Shown: positions 12,082-34,171, numbered from the stretch's first letter. The stretch is DNA of 43,700 nucleotides from Planctomycetota bacterium (GCA_025459285.1 JALOQY010000001.1:1-43700); one strand, 5' to 3'. Numbers and translations are program-made. Notes: a model not told the origin generated them from the letters alone.

Positions 12082-13634
12082 CGGAAGCAGGCCGGCAGGC
12101 CGCGGCGGATGAAGATCCGCCAGGCCTTGCGGAAGCCCGCGCGGGCGGTCTCGGCGGCCTCGTCCTGCGTGCGGATCAGCTGGCCCATCGCCAGCGCCGT
12201 CCGGAGGGACTGCTTGCCGCGCGCGGGAAGTGCCGCGGCGAGCCGGCGCAGCTCGTGACCCGCGACGAAGGCATCCTGGTGCGCGCCGAGCAGGTCCTGC
12301 AGCGCCGTGAGGCGAGCGACGAGCGGAGGCGCCTGACGGGCGTAGAGAGGAGCGAAGGCCTCCGCGGCGTAGCGCAGGCGCTTGCCGAGGATCCGGAGCC
12401 GGTGCAGTTCCTCCGGTCGCGGGTTACGGGCGTGGATGCTCCCGCCGTAACGCGCGACCTTCCTGAACGCGCGCCGGACGATGGCCGGGGCGGCGACGAG
12501 CACCGGCTCGCGGGCCGGGAGGAGGGTCGGCCGGCGGGCCGGGCCGCGCGCCAGGAAGGCGTCGAAGCCGGTCAGGAACCGCTCGCAGCGCCGGGAGTCG
12601 AGGGTTCGCAGCAGGTCTCTCCGTGCCCGCGCCCGGCGCCTCTCGAGGCTGTGACGGAAGGGGATGAGGTGGGCGCGGTCCTCCTCGGGCAGGGGCGCGG
12701 CGTAGGCATCGATGTTGCCCAGATAGACGTCGAGGTCGCGCACGGCGCCCAGGGCGGCGGCGATGTGCCGGAGGTGGACGACGAAAGCGGTGGCCCGCTT
12801 CTCCGGGAGCGCCCCGGCGAAGGTGCGGAAGGCGGCGCGGAGCCGGCGGGTGGCCACGCGCATGTCGTGGAGCGCCTCGGGGTCTTCGCCGAGCCGGGTC
12901 CCCGGCTCCCGGGACTTCACCTTCTCGAACTGCTGGCGCAGGACGCGGAACGCCGTGTCGACGAGGCGGTCCGTGCGGCGGGGCACGACATCGAAGACGC
13001 GGTCTTTGCCGCGCGCCCGCTCGAAGAGCTCGAGCGCGAGGAGTGCGCGCTCGAGCTTGGTCCGGGTCGAAGGCTCGAGCCCCCGGACCTCGAGGCATTC
13101 CCTCGCCGCGGCATCGAGCGTTCCCGCCGGGGCTCCCCGATCCTCGATCTCCACCTCCAGGAACGACTGGACTGTGGACCGTCCGTCGCCGTCGAGGATC
13201 GCGACCCGGTCGAGTGCCAGCTCGGCGTCCGCGCCGAGTCTGAAGTGGATCCGGTGGGTCCGAATCCGTGCGACGGCTTCGATCGCCCGCCCCGACAGCA
13301 GAGGGGCGAGTCTCCGCGAGATTGCGCCGTCGGGGCGGAAGATCGTGCGGGAGGGCAGGAGGTCCTCGGTCATCTCGCCGCGGTCCCGCCAAGGGGCGAG
13401 GGAGGAGGTCACCTCCTTCACGGTGGCTTCCCGGGCGGCGTCCTTCGCACGAACGCGGAGGGAGAGGCCGGCCCGGTAGAGCCGGAAGTCGCCCGTGTCG
13501 TAGTAGGTGTCCTCGTGGCGGCTCTCGCCGGCCGCGGTGAGCGGCAACCCGCCGAGAACGGGGGTCGCGGCCAGCGCGGTGAGCTGCTCCTCGGAGGAGG
13601 CGGTCCACTTGATTTCGAGTTCGCGGCCTTCCAT
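12078..13634 (-). CDS. CYTH + CHAD domain protein (polyphosphate-associated)
   Basis: ELEIK, DTYYDT..FRL, LRVR and EVEIE (CYTH). ALHDMRVATRRLRA, VRDLDV, LHRLRILGKRLRY and QDLLG..QD (CHAD). GGAGG before ATG 13634. Confidence 0.9.
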   Translation of the reverse strand: MEGRELEIKWTASSEEQLTALAATPVLGGLPLTAAGESRHEDTYYDTGDFRLYRAGLSLRVRAKDAAREATVKEVTSSLAPWRDRGEMTEDLLPSRTIFRPDGAISRRLAPLLSGRAIEAVARIRTHRIHFRLGADAELALDRVAILDGDGRSTVQSFLEVEIEDRGAPAGTLDAAARECLEVRGLEPSTRTKLERALLALELFERARGKDRVFDVVPRRTDRLVDTAFRVLRQQFEKVKSREPGTRLGEDPEALHDMRVATRRLRAAFRTFAGALPEKRATAFVVHLRHIAAALGAVRDLDVYLGNIDAYAAPLPEEDRAHLIPFRHSLERRRARARRDLLRTLDSRRCERFLTGFDAFLARGPARRPTLLPAREPVLVAAPAIVRRAFRKVARYGGSIHARNPRPEELHRLRILGKRLRYAAEAFAPLYARQAPPLVARLTALQDLLGAHQDAFVAGHELRRLAAALPARGKQSLRTALAMGQLIRTQDEAAETARAGFRKAWRIFIRRGLPACFR

Positions 13635-13638
13635 GGCC

Positions 13639-15186
13639 TCAGGCCTCCTCGATGCGGACTTCGAGACCGAACACTTCGGCGAAGAGACCGGTCTTCTCCC
13701 GCGCTGCCCACTTGGAGAGAGCCAGATCGCCGTCGGCCCTGACCCGAAGCCGGAGCTTGTCGCCATTGCGCTCCGCGTGGACGGACCGGACGCGCTGGGC
13801 GTGATCGCGGTCGAGGAGGTCCGCCGTGCGGAGAATGGCGGCGAGCTTGCGGACCGTCTCCCGGTCCTTGACCGTAAGCGCGTCGAAGTGGTCGTGCTGG
13901 CGGGTGGGGTGGCGGCGGCGATGGTAGCGGGCAACATTCGCGGCGAGCTGGCGCTGGCGTCGATCGAGGCCCACGATGTCGGACTGAGAGATGAGGTAGT
14001 GGGAGTGTTTGTGGTGTGAATCGGCGGAGACGTAGAGGCCGACGTCGTGGAGGATGGAGGAGGCTTCCAGCAGGGACCGGGCCTCCGAGGGGAGTTCGTG
14101 CAGATCGGCGAGCTGGTCGAAGAGGGAGAGGGCGAGTTCGGTCACCTTGAGCGCATGAGGCTCGTCCAGGGCGTAGCGCCGTCCCAGGCCGAGGGCGGCG
14201 GCGCGGATCTCCCGGCGCCGGGATTCGAGGGCCCCCTTCCGCTCGAGTTCCTCTACCAGGTCGAGGAGGATGCCGTCCTTCAGGCCGACTCCGGGTACGA
14301 GGATCCGGTCCACCTTGAAGACGTCCGCGATCTTGGTGCAGACAACGGCGGCGGGCAGGATGACGTCGGCGCGATCCTCGCGGAGGTTGAACTCCGTGAC
14401 CCGCTGGCGGAAAGTGCTCGAGGCGAGCCGGAGCACGAGATCGCGCAGCGCGCCGACGGAGACGGCCCGGCATCCGCCGTCGAGAGCGGGCGGTCCCTTC
14501 AGGTCCTGGCCCGCGATCTCCGCGAGGCTCTCCGCGGAACCCCCGGTGGCGGCCACGAAGTCCACCGGCTCGCGTCCCAAGGCGGTGCGGATCCGCGCGC
14601 GGATGGCGTCCACGTAGTGGTCGAGGAGCGAGAGGAAGTCGTTGCCCTTGCCCCGGCCGGGGACGGGGAGCGCCTCGAGCAGCCGCACGGCTCCGAACGG
14701 GTAGGACTCGGCACGGACGACGTCGCCGTGGTCGATGACGAGGACCTCCACGCTGCCGCCGCCGATGTCCACCGCGGCGGAGCGCCCCTTCGAGAGATCC
14801 AGGCGGCTGCCCACGGCCCGGCGGACCAGGTGGGCCTCCTCGGCGCCGTCGATCACGGTGATGGTGAGGCCCGTCTCAGCCCGGATCCGCTCGACGACCT
14901 CGGCCGAGTCCGAGGCCTCCCGGAAGGCGCTCGTGGCGATCGCCCGGACGTGTTCCGCGCCGTGGCGCTCGATGGCCCGGAGGAACTGCCGGAGGGCGGA
15001 GATCGTGCGCCCGGCGGCGGCTTCGCCGATCCGGCCCATGAGGAACACCTGCGTGCCGAGGCGCACCGGCTCCCGGAGGTTCTCCAGGACGCGAACTTCC
15101 CCCCGGGCGCCTGCTTCCGCGACGAAGCAGCGCATGGCGTTGGTGCCGATATCGATGGCCGCGAACCGACTCACGCGAACCCCCAA
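13639..15186 (-). CDS. ppx: Exopolyphosphatase / pppGpp phosphohydrolase (Ppx/GppA)
   Basis: AAIDIGTN, ATSAFREA, GAEEA, DIGGGSVE, GLKDG, and HD domain (LHDVG..HHKHS). Start may be GTG 15174. Confidence 0.93.
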   Translation of the reverse strand: MGVRVSRFAAIDIGTNAMRCFVAEAGARGEVRVLENLREPVRLGTQVFLMGRIGEAAAGRTISALRQFLRAIERHGAEHVRAIATSAFREASDSAEVVERIRAETGLTITVIDGAEEAHLVRRAVGSRLDLSKGRSAAVDIGGGSVEVLVIDHGDVVRAESYPFGAVRLLEALPVPGRGKGNDFLSLLDHYVDAIRARIRTALGREPVDFVAATGGSAESLAEIAGQDLKGPPALDGGCRAVSVGALRDLVLRLASSTFRQRVTEFNLREDRADVILPAAVVCTKIADVFKVDRILVPGVGLKDGILLDLVEELERKGALESRRREIRAAALGLGRRYALDEPHALKVTELALSLFDQLADLHELPSEARSLLEASSILHDVGLYVSADSHHKHSHYLISQSDIVGLDRRQRQLAANVARYHRRRHPTRQHDHFDALTVKDRETVRKLAAILRTADLLDRDHAQRVRSVHAERNGDKLRLRVRADGDLALSKWAAREKTGLFAEVFGLEVRIEEA

Positions 15187-20005: not shown

Positions 20006-22255
20006 TCAGGCCCGCAGGGCCGCCGCTTCCACCACGCCCACCGTGGTCAGGTTCACGACCTGCTCCACCGTCGCTTCGTACTGGAGGACGTGGGCCGGGA
20101 GCGCCGTGCCCATGAGCACCGGGCCGATGGGGATCGCCTCGCCCATGTACTGGAGCGAGTGCATCGTGAGGTTCCCGGACTGGAGGTCGGGGAACACGAG
20201 GACGTTGGCGTCCCGATCGATGTCGGCGAAGGGGAAGCATGTCCGGCGGAGCGCGCCATCGCGTGCCGCGGCGAGCTGCATCTCCCCGTCGATCCGGAGG
20301 TCCGGCGCCATCTCGCGGGCGAGTGCCACGGCGCGGCGGACCTTCCTCGTGTGGGGGTGGTCGACGCTCCCGAAATTCGAGAACGAGAGCATCGCGACGC
20401 GGGGCTCCACGCCCAGGGCGCGGCTCGTGCGGGCCGCCAGCACGGCGATCTCAGCGAGGTCCGTGGCGTCCGGGTCGACCTGCACCGCGCAGTCCGCGAG
20501 GAACACGACGTCCCGCGGCAGCAGTACGAGGTAGTGGCTCGAGACCTTCCGCACGCCGGGCGCCGGACCGATCGCCTGGAGCATCGTGCGCAGCGTCTCC
20601 ACGTAGTGACTCGCATACCCCGCGATCAGCATGTCGGCGTCTCCGCAGCGGACCATCATCGCCGCGAAGATGTCCGGCCTCGTCACGAGCCTGGCGGCGG
20701 CATCGCGCATGACGCCGCGGCGCTTCCGCAGCTCGAAATAGGCCTCCACACAGGCCCCGAACCGGGGGCTGCGCTCCGGCTCCACGATCGGTACCCCCCC
20801 GAGGTCCAGGGAAAGCCGGTCGGCCTTCTCGCGGATCTCGCGCTCCCGGCCGAGCAGCACGGGGCTCGCGATCCCCTCGTCGAGGAGGATGCCGCAGGCG
20901 CGGAGGATCGCTTCGCTCGTCCCCTCGGAGAAGACCACGCGGAGTTTCGCCTGCCGGGCGCGGAGGATCAGCCCCCGCATGGTCTCGCGGCCGGTCCCGA
21001 TCCTCGTCGTGAGGATCTCGTGGTAGGCCGCCGCCTCCAGTGGTCGCCCCGCCACCTCCTCCCGGACGGCCTGCTCGGCCACGGCGGCCGACTCGCGCAC
21101 GAGGATCCGCGGGTCGATGGGCTTCGGCAGGAGGTAGCTCGGGCCAAACGCCATCGTCTCGTCCGCGTAGGCCCGCACGACCTCCTCCGGCACCTCCTCG
21201 CGCGCAAGGTCGGCGAGAGCCCGGGCCGCGGCGAGGAGCATCCCCTCGGTGATGCTGGTGGCCTGCACGTCGAGAGCGCCCCGGAACACATAGGGCACGG
21301 ACAGCAGGTCGAGGATGGCGTTCGGATACTGGCCGAGGCCGGTGGCCACGATCACGTCCTTGCGGCAGGCCCGGGCCACCCCGTAGTCGATCTCCGGCTC
21401 CGGGGTGGCCAGGGCGAAGACGATGGGGAACCGGGCCATGGACCGCACCATCTCCGGGGTGAGGACCCCGGCGGCGGAGGCCCCGACGAAAACGTCCGCG
21501 CCTCGAAGCCCTTCGCCAAGGGACGCCGAAGGGTGCGGGCGGGCGAACTCCCGCTGGTAGGCGTGGAGGTCCGTCCGGTCGGAATGGAGGAGGCCGTCCC
21601 GATCGTAGACGAGCAGGTTCTCCGGCCGGACGCCGAGCTTCACGAACAGACGGGCGCAGCCGGTGCCCACGGTCCCCGCTCCGCAGAGGACGACGCGCGC
21701 GCCGTCGATCCGCTTGTCGGTCAGATCGAGGGCGTTGAGCAGCGCCGCCGCGGCCACCACCGCCGTGCTGTAGAGGTTTTCGTGGAACACGGGGATCCGG
21801 AGGCGCGCGAGCAGGCGCTCGTAGATGATCAATCCCTCGGGCGCCCGGATGTCCTTCAGGTTCACGGCCCCGAATGTCGGCTCGAGCATCGCCACGGTCT
21901 CCACGAACTTCTCCGGATCCGTGGTGTCGATCTCGAGGTCGAAGACGTCGAGGTCCGCGAGCCGCTTGAACAGCACGGCCATGCCCTCCTGCATGGGCTT
22001 CGCGGCGAGCGGACCGACGGCCCCGAGCCCGGGGACGGCGGTACCGTTCGTCACGACCCCCACGAGGTTCCCCCGCGAGGTGAAGCGGAAGGCCGCCGAG
22101 GGATCGGCGGCGATCTCCTCCGCGGGGAACGATGCCCCGGGGAGGTAGGCGAGCCGCATCTCCCGCGGCGTGACGCAGGGCTTCGCCGGTCGGACCTCGA
22201 TCTTCCCGGGCCGGCCCGCGGCGTGATACTCGAGCGAATCGTGTCTCCGGATCAT
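20006..22255 (-). CDS. maeB: MaeB-type malic enzyme/phosphotransacetylase fusion (749 aa) with substituted active site
   Basis: LEYH..RPGKIEV, GNLV.VVTNGTAV.GLG, FALATPEPEI, PKP.DPR, then a PTA domain (VVFSEG, FLADC, AMLSFSNFGS, DGEMQ, ANVLVFPDLQSGN). ATGA overlap with the upstream gene and GGAGG RBS. Confidence 0.9.
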   Translation of the reverse strand: MIRRHDSLEYHAAGRPGKIEVRPAKPCVTPREMRLAYLPGASFPAEEIAADPSAAFRFTSRGNLVGVVTNGTAVPGLGAVGPLAAKPMQEGMAVLFKRLADLDVFDLEIDTTDPEKFVETVAMLEPTFGAVNLKDIRAPEGLIIYERLLARLRIPVFHENLYSTAVVAAAALLNALDLTDKRIDGARVVLCGAGTVGTGCARLFVKLGVRPENLLVYDRDGLLHSDRTDLHAYQREFARPHPSASLGEGLRGADVFVGASAAGVLTPEMVRSMARFPIVFALATPEPEIDYGVARACRKDVIVATGLGQYPNAILDLLSVPYVFRGALDVQATSITEGMLLAAARALADLAREEVPEEVVRAYADETMAFGPSYLLPKPIDPRILVRESAAVAEQAVREEVAGRPLEAAAYHEILTTRIGTGRETMRGLILRARQAKLRVVFSEGTSEAILRACGILLDEGIASPVLLGREREIREKADRLSLDLGGVPIVEPERSPRFGACVEAYFELRKRRGVMRDAAARLVTRPDIFAAMMVRCGDADMLIAGYASHYVETLRTMLQAIGPAPGVRKVSSHYLVLLPRDVVFLADCAVQVDPDATDLAEIAVLAARTSRALGVEPRVAMLSFSNFGSVDHPHTRKVRRAVALAREMAPDLRIDGEMQLAAARDGALRRTCFPFADIDRDANVLVFPDLQSGNLTMHSLQYMGEAIPIGPVLMGTALPAHVLQYEATVEQVVNLTTVGVVEAAALRA

Positions 22256-25200
22256 GACCATTCCTCCGAACCCGCCGAAAGCGGGAATCTCCCGAGCGTC
22301 GCCTCGAGCGCCGGGAGGAGAACCGGCACGGGGCGCACCTGAAGGATGAAGACACGGCTCCTCTCGATGCCGAACTCCACGTCCACCGGATGGCCGAAGA
22401 CCTCCTCGAGACGGGCGGCAAGGCGGACGAGTTCGGCGAGTTCCACGTACTCGAGCGCCGGCCGCAGGCGCTGGTGATAGAGGCTCTCCGCGCGGATCGT
22501 GCCCCGACCGGCGCGGCGGTCGAAGACGATCCGTTCCCGTTTGTCCGCCACCGCGTAGCTCATCCGGAAGCCGCCCCGCGTCAGGTCTCCCTCCTTCGAG
22601 ACGGTGACGTGGTCCGCGGCGACCGTGCCGGAGACGATGCCCTCTCCGAGCCCGAGTCCGGCATTGATGACCATCTCGCCCTCCTCCCCTCGCGCCACGT
22701 CCACGGTGAGCAGCACTCCGGACACCCGGGAGTCGACCATGCGCTGGACGAGGACTCCGCCGCCCCCGGCGCCGGGGCCGAAGAGAGTCCGGTTGTGGAT
22801 CGCGCGCTCCGTCCAGAGACCGCTCCAGCAGTTCGCGAGCGTTTCGAGCAGGGCCGCCTCGCCCCGGACGAAGAGGAAGGTCTCGAACTCGCCGGCGCGG
22901 GACGCGGCCTCCGCGTCCTCCTCGCGGGAGGAGGAGCGTACGGCCACGAACGTCTCCTCCCCGTCCGGTCCGAGGGCCCGGTAGGCCGAGCCGATCTCCT
23001 CGGCGAGGTCCTTCGGGGGGCGAACCTCGGCGAAGAGCCCGCGGATGAGCGCGGCCTTCTCGGCGGCGGTGGGCCCGTCGCGCGCGAGCACGGTGTCGAT
23101 GGCCGCGCGGAGGCTCCCGGACCGGCTCCGCTCGGCGGCGAGTCGCGGAGCGACCTCCGCCAGCGGACAGTCGAGAACGCGGCGCAGCGCGGCGTCGGTG
23201 ACCGTGAACCAGGGCGGCACGAACTCGGCCCCGAGGATGCGGGCGGTCTCCGCGAGGTTCGCCGCCTTGGCCCCCGCCAGCGGCAGCAGTTCGAACCCGC
23301 CGTCGGCGGCGGTGAGGATGGTCCGGCCGGCAAGGCGCCGCTCGCGCTCCGCGTCCCGGGCCGCAAGGTCTCTCGCCGGTCGCGCGAGGTCCTCGTGCCC
23401 GCCCTCCGGCGTTCCGAGCAGGGCGTCCGCGCGCGCCGCCCGGCGCAGCAGATGGCGGAGGTGGGGGTGCTCCGGTGAGATGGAGATCGCGGCGGCGTCG
23501 CGCAGTTCGTGGAGCCTCCGGCGGGCAAGTACATCCAGCGGGGCGGTGGAAGGCGCCCCTCCCGCGGGACCGGCGAGGGCCCTCGTGGCCCGTAGGGCTT
23601 CGAGGCGGGGGGCCAGCACCTCGAAGAGGCCGATGGCGCGCGGAATGCGGTCCTCGGCCCTCCGGAAGGCCCTCCGGCGGCGTGCCTCGAGTTCGCGGGC
23701 GGTCTGCGCGACGAAGGTCGGGACCACCGCCGTGACGGCGGGGTTCTGTCCGAGGGTCGCGAGGAGTTCCTCGCGATCCGTGACGGTCTCCCCGAGCAGG
23801 AGCTCCCGGACCGCGAACCGCGCGAGCACGGGATCGACGAGGCGCCCGAGCACTTTCGCCACCTGATGTCGGGCGCGCAATCGCCGGCCGCGGAGCACGA
23901 GCGCGTCGGCATCCGACGGGGCGGCGCCGAGGCACTGCTCGGCCTTCGCGAGGTGGCGCAACCCCTCGGCGAGGGCGAGGGTGTCACGGTCCTGGCCCAG
24001 GACTCGCAGGGTTCCGGCGGTGGCGTTGAGGACGAGGAGGTCCCCTTCGACGAGTCGGTGTTCGCGTTCCCGGAGGTTCCGGCGTTCGCCGATCCGGAAG
24101 CCGCGGACCTCGTATTCCTCCTCCCGATACTCGGGAACGGTGAAGAGGAGGATCGGAGCTCCGGAGGCATCCGCCGTCCAGCGTCCGGGGATCACCAGCG
24201 CGGGTTTGCGGAACTGGAGCGCGATGAGCCCGGCGTGGGAGAGGGCGCCCCCTCCGGTGGAGACGACGCCCGCCGCGCGGTAGAGGCCCGGGGTATCCTC
24301 CGGCCGGACCGCGGCCTTCACGAGGATGGCGCCCTCGAGGGCTTCCGCCGGGGTATCGCCGTTCCCGAAGACGGCGTGGCCGGAGGTCCGCCCGGGAGCC
24401 GCCGGCAGTCCGGTGATCACCCTCTCCCCGGGAAGTGGCCCCGGCTCCCGGACCAGATCCCCGGCGGCGATTTCGCGGAGCAGCCGCCGGGCCTCCTCGC
24501 GGGCCTCGGACGAGGACGGCTCGACCTCCACCAGGGGGAAGTTGGCCCGGCGGAGCTTCCCGGCGAGAGCCGGCAGCGGCACGCCGGGGCACCGGGCGAG
24601 TCGGATGATCCCCGCCTCGTCGCGCAGCACCGACAAGGCCAGTCCTTCCCCGGGCAGACCCAGCCGCGCGCTGAGGACGTCACGGCCCGCGACGTGGCCA
24701 ATGGTCCGGAACGACAGCGTCCGCGCCACGGGTCCCGTGAGGCGGGCGCAGGCCACCGCCTCGGCCACCGCGGCCTCGCCCTCCGCGAGGAGCTCCGCGA
24801 ACCGCACCGCCTCGTGCCGTCGGCCGGAGGCGGGCCGCGGGCCCTCCGGCCCCGGGATGATCTCGCCGCGGGCCAGGGCTTCCGCGAGTGGGGTGAGGAC
24901 CGTCTCTTCGAGCCGGATCTGCCCGAGGGCCCGCCTCCGGTCTTCCCCCCCGAACGATGGCTCGGGCAGGCGAAGGGCGGCGAGTCCGGCCGCGAGACGG
25001 TCGAGGAGCCCCGGGAGGGGCGGGCCGCCGAAGCGGTCCCCCGGGGGGCCCTCGCCGGTCCACGGGATCTCCTTCTCGCCGAGGGGACCCCGCTCGATCG
25101 CGGCGAGGACGCCCCGGCGGTCCTTCGTGAGGAGCGCGCGCAGGGGAAGCGCGCCGTGGCGCGCGAAGGACGCCGCCCACTCCTCCGCCAGCGTCTCCCG

Positions 25201-27030
25201 GGCCCCGGGCGGGAGATCCAGGGAGCCGAGGACCCAGTCGAGATCCATGAGATACGGCGCGAGGCGCAGCATCGCCGCGGCCCGGTCGCAGAGCGTCCCG
25301 AGGTCCACGACCGACTCCTTGTCCGCCCGCGCGTGGACCCGCGTGCCGCGGACTTCCACGTCGAAGCCGAGCGCGGCGAGGAAGGCGCGAAGAGACTCGA
25401 GGCCCGGTGCCGGGTGGGCGTCCAGCTCGTAGTTGCTGACCCCGAAGAACTCGAGGTCCACCATCCCGCCCCGCAGTGGGGGCGAGAGGTCGAGGCGCAG
25501 GAACGCCGGGTGGTTGCGGAACGAGAGATAGACGTGGACCTCGTTGCCGTAGGAGTGGACCTCCACCCAGGGGAACTTCTCCTGTCCGGCGAGGAGTTGT
25601 CGCGCGATGCCGTCGAGGGCGGCGCGCACGGGCCAGGGGAGGCCCGCGTCGCCGGAGAAGTCGGCGTACTTCACCACCTTCGCGCTGGCGAGGCGCCCCT
25701 TCGTCGCCACGACGACGTCGGCGGTGCGGCGCGGCGCCCGCCCGGCGCCGACGAACGAGAAGCCGAGGCGCAGACCGCGCTGGTGGAGATAGCGCTTCAG
25801 GCCGTGCAGCGTGCGGACCTCCCCCAGGTTCCGAGGGTCCTCGAACGCGTTCACGAGCCGGGTCAGCTCCGGGGACAGATGCTCCCGGCCGGCCTCGCGC
25901 CCGAGTTCCCGCGCGATGGCGTCGCGGAGATCCCGCCACGCCCCGGGGAGGAGCGCGCACTCTTCCGAGAGGTTCGCGAACAGCGCGATGAAATCTTCAA
26001 CGACCGCGCCCATGTCGGCGACGAGCGACTGTACGCGTTCCTTCGTCAGGGGCGCGAGATCGAGGATCCGCTCGAGAAGGGCGGCGTGACGGAGGTTGAG
26101 CGTGCGGAAGCGGTCCACGGGGGCGCCGGTTTCGCGCGCGTTGTCCGGACTGCCGGCCTCCCCGCCGTGGGCGAAGAAGATGACCGATTCGCCGGCGCGG
26201 CGGAGCCCGTCCGCGCCATCGAGGAGGGAGGCGGCGTAGGGGGGAACGAACAGCGGCAGGGCGCCGCCGGTGACGAAGCCCGCGAGGCGCTTCGCCTCGA
26301 TGCCGTGGTTCACCCTGGCCCAGCCGAGAGAGGCGACGACCTCGCGGAGGAGCTCGAAGCCGGCGACTTCCTCCGCCCGGCGCATGGCCGCGACGGTGCC
26401 GGCCGTCAGGTGCGAAAGATCGAGGTGCGACGCCCGCGTGTAGTCGAGATACCCGGCCAGGAAGTCGTGATCCGCGGGGGCGAGAAGCTGCCGGGCGGTC
26501 TCTGGTGGGGCGGGTTCGCCGGAAAGATCGAGGATGCGGGCGGCCAGCCTCCGGACGCTCTCGTCGCGGGCGTCGAGGAAGTGGCCGGTCAGCGGCCCCG
26601 CGCGGGCGAGGATGCGCCCGGCGTCGGCGATGGCGTCCGGTCCGGCGAAGGGCGAGTCATCGATCTCGACGCGCTCCGCGATCGCGGCGAGGATCGCCCC
26701 GCCGGGGAGTGCGTCCCGCTCCGCGGCGAGACGCAGCGCGCGGCGGGCGAGTGAGGGGTCGCGCGCGCCAAGGAGCGATCTGAAGAGGGGCCAGGGATCC
26801 GCGAGACCGGCGGCGGCCTCGGCGAGGAGGTCGAAGACCGGCACCAGGACCGCGCCCGCCCGCTCGCCGAGGAGGTCGCCGAGAGGGTGGAGCGGGGCCG
26901 GGTCCGGAAGCGGGAAGTACCGGCGGAGTCGATCGCAGTGGCCGGCGACATCCACGGGATCGGCCGTCGCGAGCCGCGCTGCGGCGGCCACGCGCCCGAC
27001 AAGGTCGGCGATCTCGTCCCGCGAGGACAT
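22252..27030 (-). CDS. 1592-aa PEP synthase/PPDK-family dikinase-like protein with order unknown N-terminus, phospho-His domain, ATP-grasp
   Basis: His domain GLPAAPG..SG...GVVSTGGGALSHAGLIA (His932). C-terminal nucleotide-binding domain GAKAANL, VAVRSS..ED...S.AGEFETFL, VLVQRMV..SGV, GLGEGIVSG, DVEF, ILQVRP. Confidence 0.88.
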   Translation of the reverse strand: MSSRDEIADLVGRVAAAARLATADPVDVAGHCDRLRRYFPLPDPAPLHPLGDLLGERAGAVLVPVFDLLAEAAAGLADPWPLFRSLLGARDPSLARRALRLAAERDALPGGAILAAIAERVEIDDSPFAGPDAIADAGRILARAGPLTGHFLDARDESVRRLAARILDLSGEPAPPETARQLLAPADHDFLAGYLDYTRASHLDLSHLTAGTVAAMRRAEEVAGFELLREVVASLGWARVNHGIEAKRLAGFVTGGALPLFVPPYAASLLDGADGLRRAGESVIFFAHGGEAGSPDNARETGAPVDRFRTLNLRHAALLERILDLAPLTKERVQSLVADMGAVVEDFIALFANLSEECALLPGAWRDLRDAIARELGREAGREHLSPELTRLVNAFEDPRNLGEVRTLHGLKRYLHQRGLRLGFSFVGAGRAPRRTADVVVATKGRLASAKVVKYADFSGDAGLPWPVRAALDGIARQLLAGQEKFPWVEVHSYGNEVHVYLSFRNHPAFLRLDLSPPLRGGMVDLEFFGVSNYELDAHPAPGLESLRAFLAALGFDVEVRGTRVHARADKESVVDLGTLCDRAAAMLRLAPYLMDLDWVLGSLDLPPGARETLAEEWAASFARHGALPLRALLTKDRRGVLAAIERGPLGEKEIPWTGEGPPGDRFGGPPLPGLLDRLAAGLAALRLPEPSFGGEDRRRALGQIRLEETVLTPLAEALARGEIIPGPEGPRPASGRRHEAVRFAELLAEGEAAVAEAVACARLTGPVARTLSFRTIGHVAGRDVLSARLGLPGEGLALSVLRDEAGIIRLARCPGVPLPALAGKLRRANFPLVEVEPSSSEAREEARRLLREIAAGDLVREPGPLPGERVITGLPAAPGRTSGHAVFGNGDTPAEALEGAILVKAAVRPEDTPGLYRAAGVVSTGGGALSHAGLIALQFRKPALVIPGRWTADASGAPILLFTVPEYREEEYEVRGFRIGERRNLREREHRLVEGDLLVLNATAGTLRVLGQDRDTLALAEGLRHLAKAEQCLGAAPSDADALVLRGRRLRARHQVAKVLGRLVDPVLARFAVRELLLGETVTDREELLATLGQNPAVTAVVPTFVAQTARELEARRRRAFRRAEDRIPRAIGLFEVLAPRLEALRATRALAGPAGGAPSTAPLDVLARRRLHELRDAAAISISPEHPHLRHLLRRAARADALLGTPEGGHEDLARPARDLAARDAERERRLAGRTILTAADGGFELLPLAGAKAANLAETARILGAEFVPPWFTVTDAALRRVLDCPLAEVAPRLAAERSRSGSLRAAIDTVLARDGPTAAEKAALIRGLFAEVRPPKDLAEEIGSAYRALGPDGEETFVAVRSSSREEDAEAASRAGEFETFLFVRGEAALLETLANCWSGLWTERAIHNRTLFGPGAGGGGVLVQRMVDSRVSGVLLTVDVARGEEGEMVINAGLGLGEGIVSGTVAADHVTVSKEGDLTRGGFRMSYAVADKRERIVFDRRAGRGTIRAESLYHQRLRPALEYVELAELVRLAARLEEVFGHPVDVEFGIERSRVFILQVRPVPVLLPALEATLGRFPLSAGSEEWS

Positions 27031-27130
27031 GGCGCCCTGTGCGCGGCCCGTGGATTGTACGCTTCCGCGGAGCGCGGCGCCACCCCGTTGTGGCGACCGT
27101 CCGGCCTGGCCGCCCGTCGCCGAGAGGCTG

Positions 27131-27646
27131 CTAGCGGCGTGAAGCGAGGCGGACGATTCCGGAGCCGAGGAGGCCGAGGAGGGCCACCGCGGTCCCGGTG
27201 AGGAGCAGGGCAGCCGTGCTGCTGACCCCGTTCGCGATGTCTGCCGGGGTCACTTGTGCGCTGAGCCGGCCGATCGTGTCCATGGCGCCCCGCAGGCCAG
27301 TCAGGGCGCCGAGCAGCGCGAAGAGGAACGCCGCTTCGCCGAGGCCCCGGACGAGCGCACCCCAGCAGGGCCACGCCCCTTCCCGGCGCACCGCGCAGGC
27401 CCCGAGCAGTGTGGCGGCGAGCACGGCGACCCCGAGCGCGAGGAGGGTCCACTGTCCCCACCCGCGCGCGGTGCCCACCCCCGGAAAGCCGGTCCCGGGC
27501 CTTCCCGTGTCCGGCCCGGCCGCCTCGGCCGCTTCGACCGTCCAGTCCGTGATTCGCACGGCGGGGATCTGCACGAAGGTGAAGGGCAGCGTGAGGAGCA
27601 GGAGTACCACCGCACCCCGCGCCGCGACGAAAGCCGCTCGTCCCAT
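27131..27646 (-). CDS. Small membrane protein with MotA/TolQ/ExbB-like C-terminal helices
   Basis: GGAGG RBS. LLGALTGL..AMDTI....TPADIANGVS...LLTGTAVAL resembles the proton-channel TM pair. Confidence 0.55.
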   Translation of the reverse strand: MGRAAFVAARGAVVLLLLTLPFTFVQIPAVRITDWTVEAAEAAGPDTGRPGTGFPGVGTARGWGQWTLLALGVAVLAATLLGACAVRREGAWPCWGALVRGLGEAAFLFALLGALTGLRGAMDTIGRLSAQVTPADIANGVSSTAALLLTGTAVALLGLLGSGIVRLASRR

Positions 27647-27727
27647 GGTCCGCCTCCCGGCTGTTCGATCCGGGGTCACTCTACCGGATGCGGCAGTCGC
27701 GGCGCAAGCAGGCGAAACGACTCCGAG

Positions 27728-28646: not shown

Positions 28647-28943
28647 ATGTCGCCTCTCTGTCCGACTCGCGAAGAACTCCTCGTGGATTGCCGGGGTCGT
28701 CCCTATTTCCTCTGGGACTGCGAGCTGACGCTGGACGAATTCCGCGCGAAACTCCGGACGGGAGACCGTGCGCAGCGGGCCTACCTCGCCGGGAAGCTCA
28801 TGCGCCAGGCGAAGCCCGACGACGTCTTCTCCTTCGTGAGTCTCTCTGAGATCCGGGACCTCTGGCCCGACCTGGCGGGCACCCTCGGCCGCACGCGCGA
28901 CTTCTGGGAGTGGATTCTCGGCGAGTGGGGGGTGGTGTCATGA
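28647..28943 (+). CDS. Small protein, putative antitoxin of the AbiEii toxin
   Basis: 98-aa ORF MSPLCPT...RPYFLWD...FWEWILGEW with ATGA overlap into the toxin gene. Confidence 0.75.
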   Translation: MSPLCPTREELLVDCRGRPYFLWDCELTLDEFRAKLRTGDRAQRAYLAGKLMRQAKPDDVFSFVSLSEIRDLWPDLAGTLGRTRDFWEWILGEWGVVS

Positions 28944-29605
28944 CCGACTCGCGACTGACTCCCCTCCAGCAGAATGTCCTCGGGACCCTGGCCGGCATCG
29001 AACCGCCCTGGACCCTGACGGGGGGAGGCGCCCTGGCCGGCTTCCACCTGTGTCACCGCGCAACGCGGGATCTCGATCTGTTCTGGCACGCTCAGGTGAA
29101 GCTCGGTCCGTGGAGGGAGGAGTGCGCGCATCGCCTGCGCGACGCCGGATTCGAGGTCGCGATCCTGCAGAGGTTCGACACCTTCGAGAGGCTCCTCGTG
29201 TCGGACGGTGCCGATCGAGTGGTCCTGGACCTGGTCGCGGAGCCGGTGCCGGCGATCGAGCCGCCGCAGCAGGTCCCTCTCGGTGCCACCCGGATCCTGG
29301 TGGACACGCCGCACGAGATCCTCGTGAACAAGCTGTGTGCGCTTCTCGGCCGGGCCGAGCTCAGGGACCTCCACGAGCTGAGGGAACTGCTGGCCGTCGG
29401 AGGCGATCTCCCGCGGGCACTCCGCGACGCGCCACGGAAGGACGGCGGGTTCTCCCCGCTCATGCTGGCCTTCCTGCTCCGCGACATGCCCGTGGAGATG
29501 ATGGCCGCGGCGAGTGGACTCGGCGAACCGCTGGCCGGGGAACTCCTCCGCTTCCGCGACGAACTCGCGCCGCGCCTGCTCGCCGCGGCACGGCCCGGGC
29601 ACTAG
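28940..29605 (+). CDS. AbiEii/AbiGii-family nucleotidyltransferase toxin
   Basis: LTGGGAL...HRATRDLDLF NTase motif and NKLCALLGR.E.RD. Confidence 0.88.
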   Translation: MTDSRLTPLQQNVLGTLAGIEPPWTLTGGGALAGFHLCHRATRDLDLFWHAQVKLGPWREECAHRLRDAGFEVAILQRFDTFERLLVSDGADRVVLDLVAEPVPAIEPPQQVPLGATRILVDTPHEILVNKLCALLGRAELRDLHELRELLAVGGDLPRALRDAPRKDGGFSPLMLAFLLRDMPVEMMAAASGLGEPLAGELLRFRDELAPRLLAAARPGH

Positions 29606-30384: not shown

Positions 30385-31818
30385 CTACGCCCCTCGCCGA
30401 TCTCCGCGCCGTCTCGAAAGGAGGAGGGTCGCGGGGAGCACCACGAGAAGGAAGGCCCCGGCCGTCCAGAGCAGGCCGAGCCACAGGCTCGCCGGCGACC
30501 AGGTCCTCGTCCGGAGCGAGCACTCCCCCGTGACCGGCAGCACGTAGACCGTGCCGCTGTAAGAACCGAGGACGAGAGCCTCGTCCCCCGCGGCCTCGAC
30601 CACCGCCGGCGAGCCCCACTGGACGTCTCCCTTGGCGACCTTGTCCCAGATCGGCGTGCCGGTGAAGTACGAGGTGAGGACCTCCCCGGTCGAGGCGTCG
30701 AGGACGTAGGCGTGGTTGTCGAGGCAGGCCACGGCGAGGGCTGGACGGCCGCCCCGGGAGAAGAACGCCGGGGCGGCGAAGACTTCACCGCCGAGTGCCC
30801 GCGTGAAGAGCGGCTCCCCGGATCCGGCGTCGAAAGCATGGACCTTGTAGTCGTGGGAGCCGGCGTAGACCACGGTCCGTCCGCCGATCTCCCCCGCGCA
30901 GACCGTGTTGTCGATCCAGTTCCCGGCCATCCGCTTCCAGACTTCCCCGCCGGTCCGGGCGTCGAGGGCCACCAGGTTGCCGTACTTCGAGCCCAGGAAG
31001 AGGAGTTCCCGGCCGCCCGCGGCCGCGAGGCACGGGGCGCCGAGCACCTCGTGGGGCATCTGGTAGCGCCAGCGGATGGACGGCCTTCGCTCCGTCACGT
31101 CGACGCAGGAGAGGAGCCCCTTCTGCGCCGCCGCGAAGACGAGAGAGCGGCCGTCGATGACCCTGCCGGCCGGCGAGCCCACGGGTCCCTGGCTCACCTC
31201 CACCTCGAAGCGGCGGATCCCCGTCTCCGCCGCGAGGCCGTAGAGGCGGCCGGTCTGGCGGCTGCGGGGCAGCGCCTTGTCGTGGGTGAAGCCCGAAACC
31301 ACGAGCAGGTCGCCGATGAGGAGCGGCGAGGAGAACCGGGAGTCGCCGAGCGTGGTCGTGGGGGCGACGAGTTCCCGGCTCCAGAGCCGCGTCCCGTCGC
31401 GCGCGAGACAGGCGTAGACCGAGCGGTCCGCCGATGAGAAGTAGACGATCGGTTCGTCCCGGACGAGGCCCACCACCGGCGCGTCGAGGATCGGACCGTT
31501 CGTCATCCGCGACCAGCGGCGCTCCTTCGCCGCGAGGTCGAGGGCGGTGAGCGCGTGGTCGCAGCCGCCGAGGAAGGCGAGCGGCGTGCCGTCCACGACC
31601 GCGAGCGCCGGGGAGGTCCAGACGGGCACGCCCGGGCGGTACTTCCGGTCGGTGAGGCGCGCGTAGTGCCACTCCGGGAGCGGGGCGCCGCCGGGACAGC
31701 CGAGGGCCGCGCGCGCCGAGGCCTCCCGCCGGACCATGGGCCAGGGCGGTTCGGCGAGGGCGGCGACCGCCGCCGCGAGGAGAAGGGCTGCGCCGGCGAG
31801 CGCGGCGAGGCCCCTCAT
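30385..31818 (-). CDS. PQQ-like beta-propeller repeat protein, signal peptide plus C-terminal TM anchor
   Basis: WPMVR start. Repeats such as GSKYGNLVALDARTGGEVW and GSHDYKVHAFDAGSGE. ATGA overlap with the upstream stop; alternative start 31863. Confidence 0.85.
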   Translation of the reverse strand: MRGLAALAGAALLLAAAVAALAEPPWPMVRREASARAALGCPGGAPLPEWHYARLTDRKYRPGVPVWTSPALAVVDGTPLAFLGGCDHALTALDLAAKERRWSRMTNGPILDAPVVGLVRDEPIVYFSSADRSVYACLARDGTRLWSRELVAPTTTLGDSRFSSPLLIGDLLVVSGFTHDKALPRSRQTGRLYGLAAETGIRRFEVEVSQGPVGSPAGRVIDGRSLVFAAAQKGLLSCVDVTERRPSIRWRYQMPHEVLGAPCLAAAGGRELLFLGSKYGNLVALDARTGGEVWKRMAGNWIDNTVCAGEIGGRTVVYAGSHDYKVHAFDAGSGEPLFTRALGGEVFAAPAFFSRGGRPALAVACLDNHAYVLDASTGEVLTSYFTGTPIWDKVAKGDVQWGSPAVVEAAGDEALVLGSYSGTVYVLPVTGECSLRTRTWSPASLWLGLLWTAGAFLLVVLPATLLLSRRRGDRRGA

Positions 31819-32912
31819 CGGGACGACCCGGCGGCGGGCCGGGGAGCGGGAGCCCGCCCGCATCGCTTCCAGTCGTCCACGATCCGGATCGCCTTCGTGG
31901 GGCAGTGGTCCACGCACTTGAGGCAGAGGTGGCACTCGTGGGGATCGACCGCGCCGTTGTCGATCGCGTCCACCGCGCAGCCCTCGGTGCAGGCGCCGCA
32001 GGCGTTGCACTTCGCGGGGTCGGTCACGAGGCTCCGGACGCTGTGGCGGGAGGCCCAGGCGATCGCCTCCCGCCACGGGCAGAGGTAGCGGCACCAGATC
32101 ATGGGCACGGCGAGGGCGGCGAGGATCACCATGACCGTGGCGAGGAGCGACGCCGGGTCATAGACCTTGCTGAAGCCGAAGTGCACCGGGGAGGTGATCC
32201 GCAGGCCGACAATCGCCGCGAGCAGGATGATCGCGAAGGAGAGGACCCGCAGGCGCCGGAGCTTCCCGTCCCACCGTTTCATCCCGAAGAGCAGGACGAG
32301 GAGGATGAGGACGAGCACCTCGGACCAGTAGATGCTCGCGTCCTCCACGAAGAAGATCCGCGTCTTCGCGAGGTAGGCCATCCACAGGAGGAAGACGCCG
32401 GCGATGGCGAGGGTGAGGAGCGCCGCCCCGCGGGAGAACCGCCAACCTCCCCGCTTGCGGCGCGCGGTCCAGCGCCGGGTGAGCATCCCGGTGAACTCCT
32501 GGAGCGCGCCGGTGGGGCAGATCCAGCCGCAGAAGCTCGGGCCGAAAAGGAGGGAGGTCACGAGGACGGTCACCGGCACCGAGCAGTAGTAGAGCGCCAC
32601 GATGTTCTCGCGGCCGATCTCCGAGAGGCCCCGGAAGAGGTTCCGCACCATCCCGAACACGCCGAGACAGGTGAAGACGACGAAGATGAAGATGACGATG
32701 CCGAAGACCTGGTTCAGGTGGCGGAAGAGTTGCCGTCGGCGCTCGGGGACCACGACGGGGACGATGGCGAGGAGGCCGAGGGCGAGGATCGTCAGCAGCT
32801 CGACGTAGCTGCCCTCGAGCCCCATGAGGGCCTTGTCCACGAGCTTCAGGTTGGCGGAGACGCCCTCGAAGACCTCCTCGAGGGCGGCGAAGAACCCGGA
32901 CTTCTCGGGCAT
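31815..32912 (-). CDS. Membrane-bound 4Fe-4S polyferredoxin (NapH/MauN/YccM-like)
   Basis: Two CxxxCP motifs (FCGWICP, WCRYLCP), two ferredoxin motifs (CNACGACTEGC, CHLCLKCVDHCP), several TM helices. Confidence 0.9.
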   Translation of the reverse strand: MPEKSGFFAALEEVFEGVSANLKLVDKALMGLEGSYVELLTILALGLLAIVPVVVPERRRQLFRHLNQVFGIVIFIFVVFTCLGVFGMVRNLFRGLSEIGRENIVALYYCSVPVTVLVTSLLFGPSFCGWICPTGALQEFTGMLTRRWTARRKRGGWRFSRGAALLTLAIAGVFLLWMAYLAKTRIFFVEDASIYWSEVLVLILLVLLFGMKRWDGKLRRLRVLSFAIILLAAIVGLRITSPVHFGFSKVYDPASLLATVMVILAALAVPMIWCRYLCPWREAIAWASRHSVRSLVTDPAKCNACGACTEGCAVDAIDNGAVDPHECHLCLKCVDHCPTKAIRIVDDWKRCGRAPAPRPAAGSSR

Positions 32913-33083
32913 GGGGTCACCGGCGGATGGCGGAACCGGAATCAGGATACGCCACGGGCCGAGGAAATGCCGGTCTCGCCGCTCGTCCGCCCGCGCGTCG
33001 GGACCGTGTCGGCCTTCGGCGGTTCCCGGTAATAGGATCGCGTGGAGCGGCGCCACCGCCTCCCGGCAGCTGCGGCCCGGTGG

Positions 33084-34055
33084 TCAGGCCCGGTGCCGGA
33101 AGAGCGGCTCGACGCCTTCGAGGCGGGCGAGGAGGGCCTGGCGCTCCCTGGCGGTGAGAGGCCGATGGCGGGCGGCGAGCTCCACCGCCAGGCGGAAGAG
33201 CCGCGCGTCCCCCGGGGGTATCGTGGAGGCGACCGGCAGGTCGAGGGCGTAGCGCAGAAGCAGGCCGGCAAGTTCCGGGTCGTCGGCGGGGCGGTACCAG
33301 CACTTCGGGTACGTCCGCTCCTCGCCCTCCTTCCACTTCGTCCACGCCAGCGCCTTGAGTCCGAGGAGGGTGGTGCCGGTCTCCTTCGCCTTGTCCACGA
33401 CCGTCGGGCCGAACTTTCCGTTCTCCACGCAGACCGCGTTCAGGGGGACGAGGACGCTGTCGAAGCGGAACCGGGAGAGCGCGTCCACCGCGAGGTCCGC
33501 GTCGTGGGCCGAGAAGCCGAGCCAGCGGACGAGCCCCTCCTCCCGCGCCGAAACGAGGGTCTCCAGCGCGCCGCCGGGGCCGAAAGCCGTCTCCACGTCC
33601 TCCTTCTTCGCGAGGCCGTGGAGCTGGTAGAGGTCGAAGTGGTCGGTCTTCAGCAGTTCGAGGGAGCGCGTGAGTTCCGCGCGCGCCCCGGCGGCGTCGC
33701 GCTTCGCGGTCTTGCACGCGAGGAAGACCTTCTTGCGGTGCGGGGCGAGCGCCGGTCCCAGCCGCTCCTCGGCGTTCCCGTAGGAGGGGGCGACGTCGAA
33801 GTAGTTTACGCCGCGGTCCACGGCCCAGGCGACGACCTCGGCGGCCTCCTGCGGCTCGATGCCGCTCACCACGATCCCGCCGAATCCGATGACGGACAGC
33901 TCCGGCCCCTGCGCGCCGTAGCGGCGCCGGGGAAGGGGGGCGGGAGCCGGTGGAGGCGCCGCCGTGGGCGGGTCTTCCGCCGCCAGGCCGGCGCGCGCCG
34001 CCACCGCTCCGGCTCCCGCCGCCGCCACGAGTTTCAGGAACTCCCTCCGATCCAT
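33084..34055 (-). CDS. Aldo/keto reductase with Tat signal peptide
   Basis: MDRREFLK twin-arginine motif. Tetrad D (FDVA), Y (SYG), K (ACKT), H (QLHG). GGAGG RBS, TACAAT at 34074-34079. Confidence 0.92.
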   Translation of the reverse strand: MDRREFLKLVAAAGAGAVAARAGLAAEDPPTAAPPPAPAPLPRRRYGAQGPELSVIGFGGIVVSGIEPQEAAEVVAWAVDRGVNYFDVAPSYGNAEERLGPALAPHRKKVFLACKTAKRDAAGARAELTRSLELLKTDHFDLYQLHGLAKKEDVETAFGPGGALETLVSAREEGLVRWLGFSAHDADLAVDALSRFRFDSVLVPLNAVCVENGKFGPTVVDKAKETGTTLLGLKALAWTKWKEGEERTYPKCWYRPADDPELAGLLLRYALDLPVASTIPPGDARLFRLAVELAARHRPLTARERQALLARLEGVEPLFRHRA

Positions 34056-34171
34056 GCCGCACCTCCGATGGCCATTGTATCGGGGCGGGGGAGCGGGTCC
34101 CGTATCGGTGACCGATCCTGCTCCTGACTCGTGTCACGTGACGCGGGACATCGGATCCCGCGCCGGCTTCG

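Follow-up and report, generated by a model that had tools for sequence, protein, structure and literature searches.

The 43,700-nucleotide stretch of DNA analyzed here (hereafter, the window) belongs to a Planctomycetota bacterium (GCA_025459285.1 JALOQY010000001.1:1-43700) and carries, on its minus strand, two adjacent genes that appear to form a hitherto unstudied unit in central carbon metabolism. The upstream gene encodes a protein referred to here as the dikinase, in which an N-terminal region of 870 residues is followed by a phosphohistidine swivel domain, a long linker, and an ATP-grasp of the PpsA type; the downstream gene encodes a protein resembling the malic enzyme MaeB, referred to here as the partner. 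The dikinase probably uses a new, family-specific acceptor module and works as a unit with the partner, a pseudo-MaeB. The two genes are strictly paired wherever the dikinase locus was found, the N-terminal region is a real folded unit specific to the family, and the partner is the most informative and decisive feature of the context of the dikinase. The components of the unit are as follows, with positions counted along the window.

22252..27030, minus strand: whole dikinase gene (P0001), 1,592 aa, from open reading frame (ORF) and translation
26323..27030, minus strand: residues 1-236, helical ARM/HEAT-like repeat (DSSP of the model)
25735..26304, minus strand: residues 243-432, beta-hairpin module (243-290) and four-helix bundle (295-432) (DSSP)
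25780..25806, minus strand: motif HGLKRYLHQ, residues 409-417, invariant in 46 and in 28 aligned sequences
25015..25734, minus strand: alpha/beta core, residues 433-672, self-contained and the most conserved part
24421..25014, minus strand: residues 673-870, helices and a four-stranded sheet, less conserved (DSSP)
24175..24336, minus strand: phosphohistidine swivel domain PF00391, residues 899-952 (Pfam E 1.2e-9)
24235..24237, minus strand: codon of His932, the predicted phosphocarrier, aligned to the catalytic His of PPDK
23284..24174, minus strand: linker, residues 953-1249, predicted mostly helical, Arg/Ala/Leu-rich by composition
22324..23283, minus strand: PpsA-type ATP-grasp PF01326, residues 1250-1569 (Pfam E 1.8e-54)
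22252..22323, minus strand: C-terminal tail and TGA stop, family consensus LRETxERxPL (alignment)
22252..22261, minus strand: stop/start overlap ATGGTCATGA, dikinase TGA over partner ATG, GGAGGA upstream
20006..22261, minus strand: partner gene, 751 aa, MaeB-like, with malic, Malic_M, and PTA_PTB (Pfam)

By the criteria of its ATP-grasp and His motif, the dikinase is assigned to the swivelling phosphohistidine dikinase superfamily. The PF00391 match reaches 38 bits against a cut-off of 23.1, and its region aligns with residues 390-465 of PPDK; the PF01326 match reaches 185.7 bits against a cut-off of 27. Among PDB sequences, the ATP-grasp is matched by a phosphoenolpyruvate (PEP) synthase (8a8e, E 1.7e-39) and a rifampin phosphotransferase (5fbs, E 2e-34), and the His domain is matched by PPDK. 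His932 lies within VVSTGGGALSHAGL, the PPDK counterpart of which is GGMTSHAAV, and the segment S924-T-G-G-G-A-L-S-H932 fits the motif S/T-x-x-G-G-x-x-x-H described around the catalytic His of swivel domains (PMC12167813). A Thr at position -2 of the catalytic His is described as common to PEP synthase, PPDK, and enzyme I and as regulatory in PPDK and PpsA (PMC12167813); in the dikinase, this position is occupied by Leu930. The columns of the ATP-grasp and of the His motif are nearly invariant across 46 aligned sequences. The NCBIfam models for PpsA, PPDK, rifampin phosphotransferase, and PigC/RedH match the His domain or the ATP-grasp only and remain far under their cut-offs: the best, NF005057, scores 200 of the 598 bits needed, TIGR01418 scores 192 of 740, TIGR01828 scores 48 of 843, and NF041857 scores 170.6 of 999, the last with a match confined to the ATP-grasp part. 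At E<=1, Pfam assigned no family to the linker, and PF02896, the PEP/pyruvate TIM barrel, was found nowhere in the dikinase; a motif scan of the whole protein returned no Walker A, HKD, HExxH, or CxxC. The original prediction, made from the sequence alone, had already read the order as an uncharacterized region followed by a His swivel and an ATP-grasp, had expected PF02896 to be missing, and had pointed to the loss of the Thr targeted by PpsR/PDRP; the Pfam order (899-952, then 1250-1569), the empty PF02896 search, and Leu930 agree with it on all three.

The dikinase shares with PpsA (EC 2.7.9.2) and PPDK (EC 2.7.9.1) a homologous ATP-grasp and swivel domain with an aligned catalytic His, and presumably the same chemistry, in which phosphate passes from ATP to His and then to an acceptor. 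Unlike these two enzymes, which are arranged as ATP-grasp, His domain, and PEP domain, it has the His domain before the ATP-grasp, lacks the PF02896 barrel, has Leu for Thr at -2, scores far under their family cut-offs, and possesses an extra 870-residue N-terminal region and a helical linker of approximately 300 residues. The earlier suggestion of a permuted PpsA gained nothing from these comparisons, as no result favours permutation over an independent assembly of domains. Plant glucan water dikinase (GWD) is described as an array of CBM45s, a central domain, a His domain, and an ATP-binding domain (PMC13553574), and the dikinase resembles GWD1 in placing acceptor-side domains first, then the His domain, and then the ATP-binding domain, so that its N-terminal core corresponds in position to the GWD "central domain" directly before the His domain. 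Judged from Pfam (no carbohydrate-binding module) and from the 150 profile matches listed (no protein from outside the dikinase family), the likeness to GWD1 is one of order only; the GWD-like order proposed originally is supported, and for the N-terminal region no similarity in sequence or fold outside the family was found. Furthermore, unlike GWD1, the dikinase is bacterial and is tied to a MaeB-like gene, not to starch metabolism. Similar to the rifampin phosphotransferase (RPH) group, which includes HpeHI, CreHI, and PpsAB, it combines an ATP-grasp with an S/T-x-x-G-G-x-x-x-H swivel domain and has no Thr at -2. In the two-component HpeHI, CreHI, and phenylphosphate synthase PpsAB, a subunit with the substrate domain and the His domain is described as followed by a separate ATP-grasp subunit (PMC12167813), and this order of subunits is the order of parts in the dikinase. 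In the N-terminal region, no domain of the rifampin-binding type was detected with the profile against PDB sequences, and RPH is not among the listed fold matches, although such a list may omit it; unlike members of the RPH group, the dikinase is twice as long and has no link to genes of aromatic catabolism.

The N-terminal region was modelled using AlphaFold2 with 45 homologues as the alignment. Residues 1-870 fold as one confident unit (pLDDT 87.7, pTM 0.83), and the core at 433-672, modelled alone, is predicted with still higher scores (pLDDT 93.4, pTM 0.89). Briefly, the helical repeat at residues 1-236 holds the conserved patch RRLAARLLD...PYLxYTRAxHxDL, and the motif HGLKRYLHQ sits on the last helix of the four-helix bundle (295-432), immediately before the core. 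Conservation peaks at residues 384-432 and 487-670, and the 46 sequences have 48 invariant columns in this region, including H409, K412, R413, H416, Q417, E497, H507, R512, H539, R568, D570, K571, D598, and W599. The model is built of helical repeats together with antiparallel sheets and does not show a (beta-alpha)8 pattern, and Pfam at E<=1 returned neither a family nor a carbohydrate-binding module in residues 1-870; the TIM barrel named in the original prediction as evidence against its reading was thus seen neither in the model nor in Pfam. Most relatives have a segment of approximately 35 residues that is missing from the window copy; it would fall around residues 812-870 (window 24421-24600), after the last sheet and ahead of the linker leading to the His domain, spans columns 946-982 of the alignment, and has the family consensus ...LxRRR...PW..N.S.D....

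Fold searches were run on the model of all 870 residues and on that of the core at 433-672. For the whole model, Foldseek returned nothing at E<=1e-3, the best match being designed armadillo proteins (E 9.6e-3), and the VIA-align list was filled by helical repeats and bundles, with Z 12.1 to a helical bundle of P-Rex1; the bundle region reached Z of approximately 10 to vinculin-tail and FAT-like bundles, scores that are common for helical folds. For the core, the best Foldseek match among solved structures was not convincing (E 5.1e-3), the best VIA match was the C-terminal domain of T4 MotA (6k4y_M, Z 6.0, root-mean-square deviation 4.5, 103 residues aligned), and a ferredoxin-like sub-domain was matched at Z of approximately 5. 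A profile built from 28 N-terminal regions was scored against 1.84 billion representatives and yielded 292 matches at E<=1e-3, of which 238 were at <=1e-10; all of the 150 matches listed are members of the dikinase family or fragments thereof. Against PDB sequences, the same profile matched designed repeats only, none with an E-value below 0.01, and for residues 384-672 the ESM Atlas offered neither a usable match nor a stored model. The motifs highlighted originally are located where they had been placed, namely FRTLN at 308-312, RTLHGLKRYLH at 406-416, LGFDVEVRGTRVHAR at 554-568, and MDLD at 595-598. They had been likened to accessory domains of uncharacterized Desulfobacterota PEP-synthase-like proteins, and they are instead the most conserved motifs of the dikinase family itself, which includes a few Desulfobacterota and Myxococcota MAGs (metagenome-assembled genomes) and is spread over approximately 11 phyla. 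The further idea that this large region could hold the acceptor site is compatible with a confidently modelled 870-residue fold that belongs to no Pfam family.

Comparison with databases confirms the dikinase as a real gene, with 197 homologues and 44 collinear loci being far beyond chance. Residues 1-870 served as the query of the word-indexed search that yielded the homologues (E<=1e-3). Almost every one measures 1,600-1,750 aa, contains both Pfam domains, and shares 35-53% identity; the names given to them in databases are "pyruvate, water dikinase," "phosphohistidine swiveling domain-containing protein," or "PEP/pyruvate-binding domain-containing protein." The 44 loci, obtained from a scan of one genome per species, all lie in MAGs and represent approximately 11 phyla, including Acidobacteriota, Bacteroidota, Ignavibacteriota, Calditrichota, Gemmatimonadota, and Eisenbacteria; Krumholzibacteriota, Planctomycetota, Myxococcota, Thermodesulfobacteriota, and one Hyphomicrobiales MAG are further lineages with loci. 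The carriers are uncultured bacteria of wetlands, sediments, and soils. In most loci, the dikinase is one open frame of approximately 1,600-1,850 codons, and it is broken or shorter in L010, L017, L018, L040, L042, and L044, as is expected of draft assemblies. In the window, it is a single intact ORF of 1,592 codons that opens at the first start codon to follow a stop and closes with TGA, and the GC content at its three codon positions (0.79/0.54/0.89) is a coding-type pattern in DNA of 72% GC. Furthermore, the gene is tiled at 95-100% identity by short contigs from three other studies. Such contigs span the junction between the N-terminal region and the His domain at 24160-24459 and 24265-24522 and the junction between the dikinase and the partner at 22137-22817 and 22069-22620; they contain no reliable joint within the dikinase gene, the three joints listed having sides of 20-21 nt. 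Because independent contigs bridge the junctions and no reliable joint was found, there is no sign of the chimeric assembly against which the original prediction had cautioned. The sequencing runs listed as containing the gene include no RNA run.

At every one of the 44 loci, the dikinase is directly followed by the MaeB-like gene in the same orientation, and the partner homologues at these loci are 57-75% identical, some copies being cut by contig ends. Nine other neighbours in the window were found at none of the 44 loci, and the clustering of 515 approximate flanking ORFs yielded no second recurrent family beside the pair; one cluster present in the flanks of nine loci comprises unrelated secreted proteins with a common FlgD_ig-type domain. 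A stop/start overlap between the two genes occurs in 26 of the 43 assessable loci (4 nt in 20 and 14 nt in 6), and in eight others the genes lie 0-30 nt apart. The pairwise identities computed for the N-terminal region correlate with those for the partner (r = 0.88; 325 pairs from 26 loci), a value that shared descent alone can yield. Prediction of a complex between the partner (751 aa) and the core at 433-672 gave scores of 0.33, 0.24, and 0.06, with a median of 0.24 against a mark of 0.32. In high-GC MAGs, the dikinase gene is often frameshifted (L034:9812-17104, P0086, L018, L040, L042, and L044), and false "fusion" proteins of approximately 2,400 aa have entered public databases because the partner starts in the +1 frame, into which a frameshift reads through. 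In L020 and L040, the two genes do not overlap but lie 1,399 nt and 497 nt apart, respectively.

The partner matches MaeB of Bdellovibrio (6zng) over residues 8-747 (E 3.5e-194; approximately 50% identity over 740 residues). It shares with MaeB (Bdellovibrio 6zng; Escherichia coli 8jzo and 9kru) the three-domain architecture with a non-catalytic PTA-like domain; the position of the PTA catalytic Asp, mapped by hand, is Val, as in MaeB. The catalytic set of the Bdellovibrio enzyme is described as comprising Tyr52, Lys107 as general acid/base, Glu149 as proton donor, and Asp174, around a Mg2+ site (PMC7902834). The corresponding residues of the partner were mapped through the 6zng alignment and the motif contexts AYSPG, MEGK, NLEDI, and HDDQHGTA, and are listed below in Bdellovibrio numbering for the window copy and for 38 dikinase-linked copies.

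Tyr52: Tyr in the window partner; Tyr in 36 of the 38 linked copies
Lys107: Met in the window partner; Met, Ile, Val, Ala, or Leu in the linked copies, Lys in none of 38
Glu149: Lys in the window partner; Lys in 35 of 38, Glu in none
Asp174: Glu in the window partner; Glu in 36 of 38
Asp175: Asn in the window partner; Asn in all 38

On the evidence of these residues and of the tree described below, the partner is a distinct paralogous lineage whose active site has been rebuilt and not simply lost. The GxGxxG motif is retained as GAGTVG, and the malic-enzyme-like half is more densely conserved than the PTA half. Since none of the 38 copies has Lys107 and two acidic residues with a catalytic or metal-binding role are replaced, the partner should not make pyruvate. 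Three ordinary MaeBs, one on contig C55 of the window genome and two present as second copies in L027 and L029, keep the Y/K/E/D/D set, and in a quick tree the branch between the ordinary MaeBs and the 38 linked copies has an SH-aLRT support of 100%, with phyla intermixed inside the clade of linked partners. The partner thus differs from MaeB in its substituted Lys107, Glu149, Asp174, and Asp175, in its separate clade, and in its constant position downstream of a giant dikinase. In L027 and L029, both paralogues occupy one neighbourhood, the ordinary MaeB (L027:1279-3531 and L029:1693-3945 (-)) lying approximately 11 kb upstream of the dikinase/MaeB-like pair.

A mechanism may be proposed from these observations, in which the most likely activity of the dikinase, judged from its conserved domains, is ATP-dependent autophosphorylation of His932 followed by onward transfer. 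ATP would bind to the C-terminal PpsA-type ATP-grasp, as its conserved parts suggest; the beta-phosphate would pass to His932 on the swivel domain, AMP would be released, and the gamma-phosphate would go to water or inorganic phosphate. Held by the N-terminal region on one side and by the long helical linker on the other, the swivel domain would then carry the phosphate to the acceptor site. For GWD1, a modelled "transfer conformation" is reported in which the histidine is received by the domain that immediately precedes the His domain (PMC13553574), and for this reason we infer that the acceptor site of the dikinase lies in its invariant basic N-terminal core, formed by the HGLKRYLHQ helix and the alpha/beta domain at 433-672, which is rich in invariant His, Lys, Arg, Asp, and Glu. 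The dikinase and the MaeB-like protein presumably bind each other, and the partner is read as obligate because of strict synteny, coupling, and the rebuilt site. As a subunit of the dikinase, non-redox or re-purposed, it would bind a ligand in order to present or sense it, and this ligand could be a C3/C4 acid, a nucleotide cofactor, or an acyl-coenzyme A (acyl-CoA).

Several observations weigh against this proposal. The two genes are separated by 31-1,399 nt in 9 of the 43 assessable loci, and translational coupling is therefore not universal. The two apparent dikinase-MaeB fusions, P0086 (2,410 aa) and an ORF in L034 (2,430 aa), were rejected as frameshift read-throughs in high-GC DNA: the L034 ORF has no PF01326 in frame and shows a normal ATGA stop/start in the proper frame, and P0086 carries only 57 residues of PF01326. 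The fold of the core, for which Z 6.0 was the best score, offers no hint of a substrate, and the conservation of the N-terminal core could reflect a protein interface and not a catalytic pocket. Additionally, a sample of 300 further genomes of the phylum of the window (191 of high quality) yielded no copy of the module, which marks it as rare and fits a probable spread by horizontal transfer.

It is also conceivable, although unlikely, that the acceptor is held not by the N-terminal core but by the metal-free, Lys-substituted cleft of the partner, which would bind a C3/C4 acid such as pyruvate enolate, malate, or oxaloacetate, with the 870-residue region acting as a clamp or scaffold. In favour of such a role, the active site of the partner is not decayed but replaced by a strictly conserved set, Tyr52 and GxGxxG are kept, and conservation is denser in its malic-enzyme-like half than in its PTA half; the tight coupling of the two genes and the ARM/HEAT-like repeat with which the dikinase starts, a typical protein-binding element, point in the same direction. 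The many invariant charged residues of the N-terminal core would be needless in a mere scaffold, however, and direct contact between the two proteins gains no support from any fusion. Moreover, we know of no dikinase of this kind that transfers a phosphoryl group at a site with two of the metal-binding or proton-relay acids missing. A related and equally doubtful proposal is that the dikinase and the partner constitute one ATP-driven enzyme at the pyruvate/malate node, with phosphate passing to a C3/C4 acid in the partner pocket or in a composite site; if true, the reaction would be new to the metabolic map; for example, pyruvate or malate could be activated at the expense of ATP, with carboxylation, reduction, or CoA chemistry coupled to this step.

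Little probability is assigned to a regulatory role, in which the dikinase would be an autokinase that phosphorylates or allosterically controls the MaeB-like partner, or an ordinary malic enzyme via mixed oligomers. The model for such a role is VadK (Rv1127c) of mycobacteria, a PPDK-derived histidine autokinase that is described in the abstract of its report as a regulator of enzymes of central carbon metabolism (PMC13400623) and that exemplifies autophosphorylating regulators binding metabolic enzymes; similar to VadK, as far as that abstract goes, the dikinase is a superfamily protein without the usual PEP/pyruvate chemistry. The MaeB hexamers are reported to act as sensors through their PTA domain (PMC7902834), each of the 37 searched genomes carrying the module has, apart from the linked copy, one or more Malic_M matches, and the ARM-like repeat at the N-terminus of the dikinase would suit the binding of such a target. 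According to the same abstract, however, VadK is a truncated PPDK that keeps the normal domain order and has no comparable N-terminal region (PMC13400623), whereas the dikinase has a large orphan N-terminal region and a MaeB-like partner, and a regulatory role leaves unexplained why the partner has acquired a new set of conserved residues in place of drift.

A PEP synthase with an unusual pyruvate-binding domain, which would form a malate-to-pyruvate-to-PEP route with the adjacent malic enzyme, is very improbable. Malic enzyme and PpsA together are a textbook gluconeogenic route, the relatives are annotated as "pyruvate, water dikinase," and the ATP-grasp is nearest to PpsA models (NF005057, 200 bits). 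Nevertheless, the score of 200 bits falls far below the PpsA cut-off of 598, PF02896 is missing, and the adjacent "malic enzyme" has lost the general base Lys in 38 of 38 copies along with two acidic residues. There is, furthermore, no gap for such an enzyme to fill, since ordinary PEP-utilizers_C (PF02896) proteins, typically one of approximately 600 aa and one of 900-1,000 aa, are present in 36 of the 37 searched genomes with the module; in the window genome itself, PF02896 is matched twice and PPDK_N at two loci besides the dikinase. On the same count of 36 in 37, the pair was ruled out as a replacement for a missing PpsA or PPDK, and, given the additional Malic_M matches in all 37, it does not substitute for an absent malic enzyme either. 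Practically no weight is left for an artefact (a chimeric assembly or a pseudogene) or for a bacterial homologue of GWD, the former drawing on the fragmentation of the window MAG (534 contigs, 88% complete) and being countered by full-length collinear relatives at 44 loci in many independent assemblies, by the junction-bridging contigs of three other studies, and by an intact frame with coding-type GC at third codon positions, and the latter drawing on a domain order identical to that of GWD and being countered by the Pfam result for residues 1-870, where neither a carbohydrate-binding module nor another family was matched.

Members of the dikinase superfamily act at key points of carbon metabolism, including PEP synthesis, C4 photosynthesis, starch turnover, antibiotic inactivation, and phenol activation. 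To our knowledge, each new acceptor domain in the superfamily has meant a new reaction. Here, known machinery for ATP/His phosphotransfer is joined to an 870-residue module of apparently novel fold and to a pseudo-enzyme partner, and the true activity of the pair could be a new ATP-driven reaction or a new regulatory device. If the labels "pyruvate, water dikinase" and "malic enzyme" are wrong, metabolic reconstructions from MAGs mis-assign two steps at the pyruvate/malate/PEP node. A search of open-access papers and bioRxiv returned no description of the dikinase family or of the dikinase-linked MaeB paralogue. The pair is compact and well defined, occupying 7 kb.

The surroundings of the pair in the window contain the following further features. 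Upstream of the dikinase lies a short spacer, which is possibly the promoter of the pair.

27031..27130, minus strand: upstream spacer of 100 nt, with TACAAT approximately 25 nt before the dikinase ATG

A consensus promoter scan detected no sigma-70-type site and three terminator-like sites, a number not above chance, and Rfam assigned no family anywhere in the window. Directly upstream of the dikinase lies an ORF of 182 aa (27131-27679, minus strand), a putative gene that belongs to no Pfam family and is missing from the 44 loci, and the gene that follows the partner encodes a convergent AI-2E transporter. A Ppx/GppA phosphatase (13639-15186) and a CYTH+CHAD protein (12078-13937), both encoded on the minus strand, are adjacent to each other and form a polyphosphate/triphosphate-handling pair 5 kb from the module, beside which they occur in none of the 44 related loci. 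An ORF at 28850-29605 (plus strand) contains an AbiEii nucleotidyltransferase toxin domain of a type IV toxin-antitoxin system (E 6.6e-13). Finally, an 862-aa protein (34172-36760, minus strand) comprises five CarboxypepD_reg repeats, DUF4198, and fn3_3, and beside it, on the same strand, are encoded an aldo/keto reductase with a twin-arginine translocation (TAT) signal (33084-34055), a 4Fe-4S protein (31815-33056), and a PQQ-like beta-propeller (30385-32094); as judged from their domains, the genes at 30385-36760 (minus strand) may constitute an exported redox cluster.

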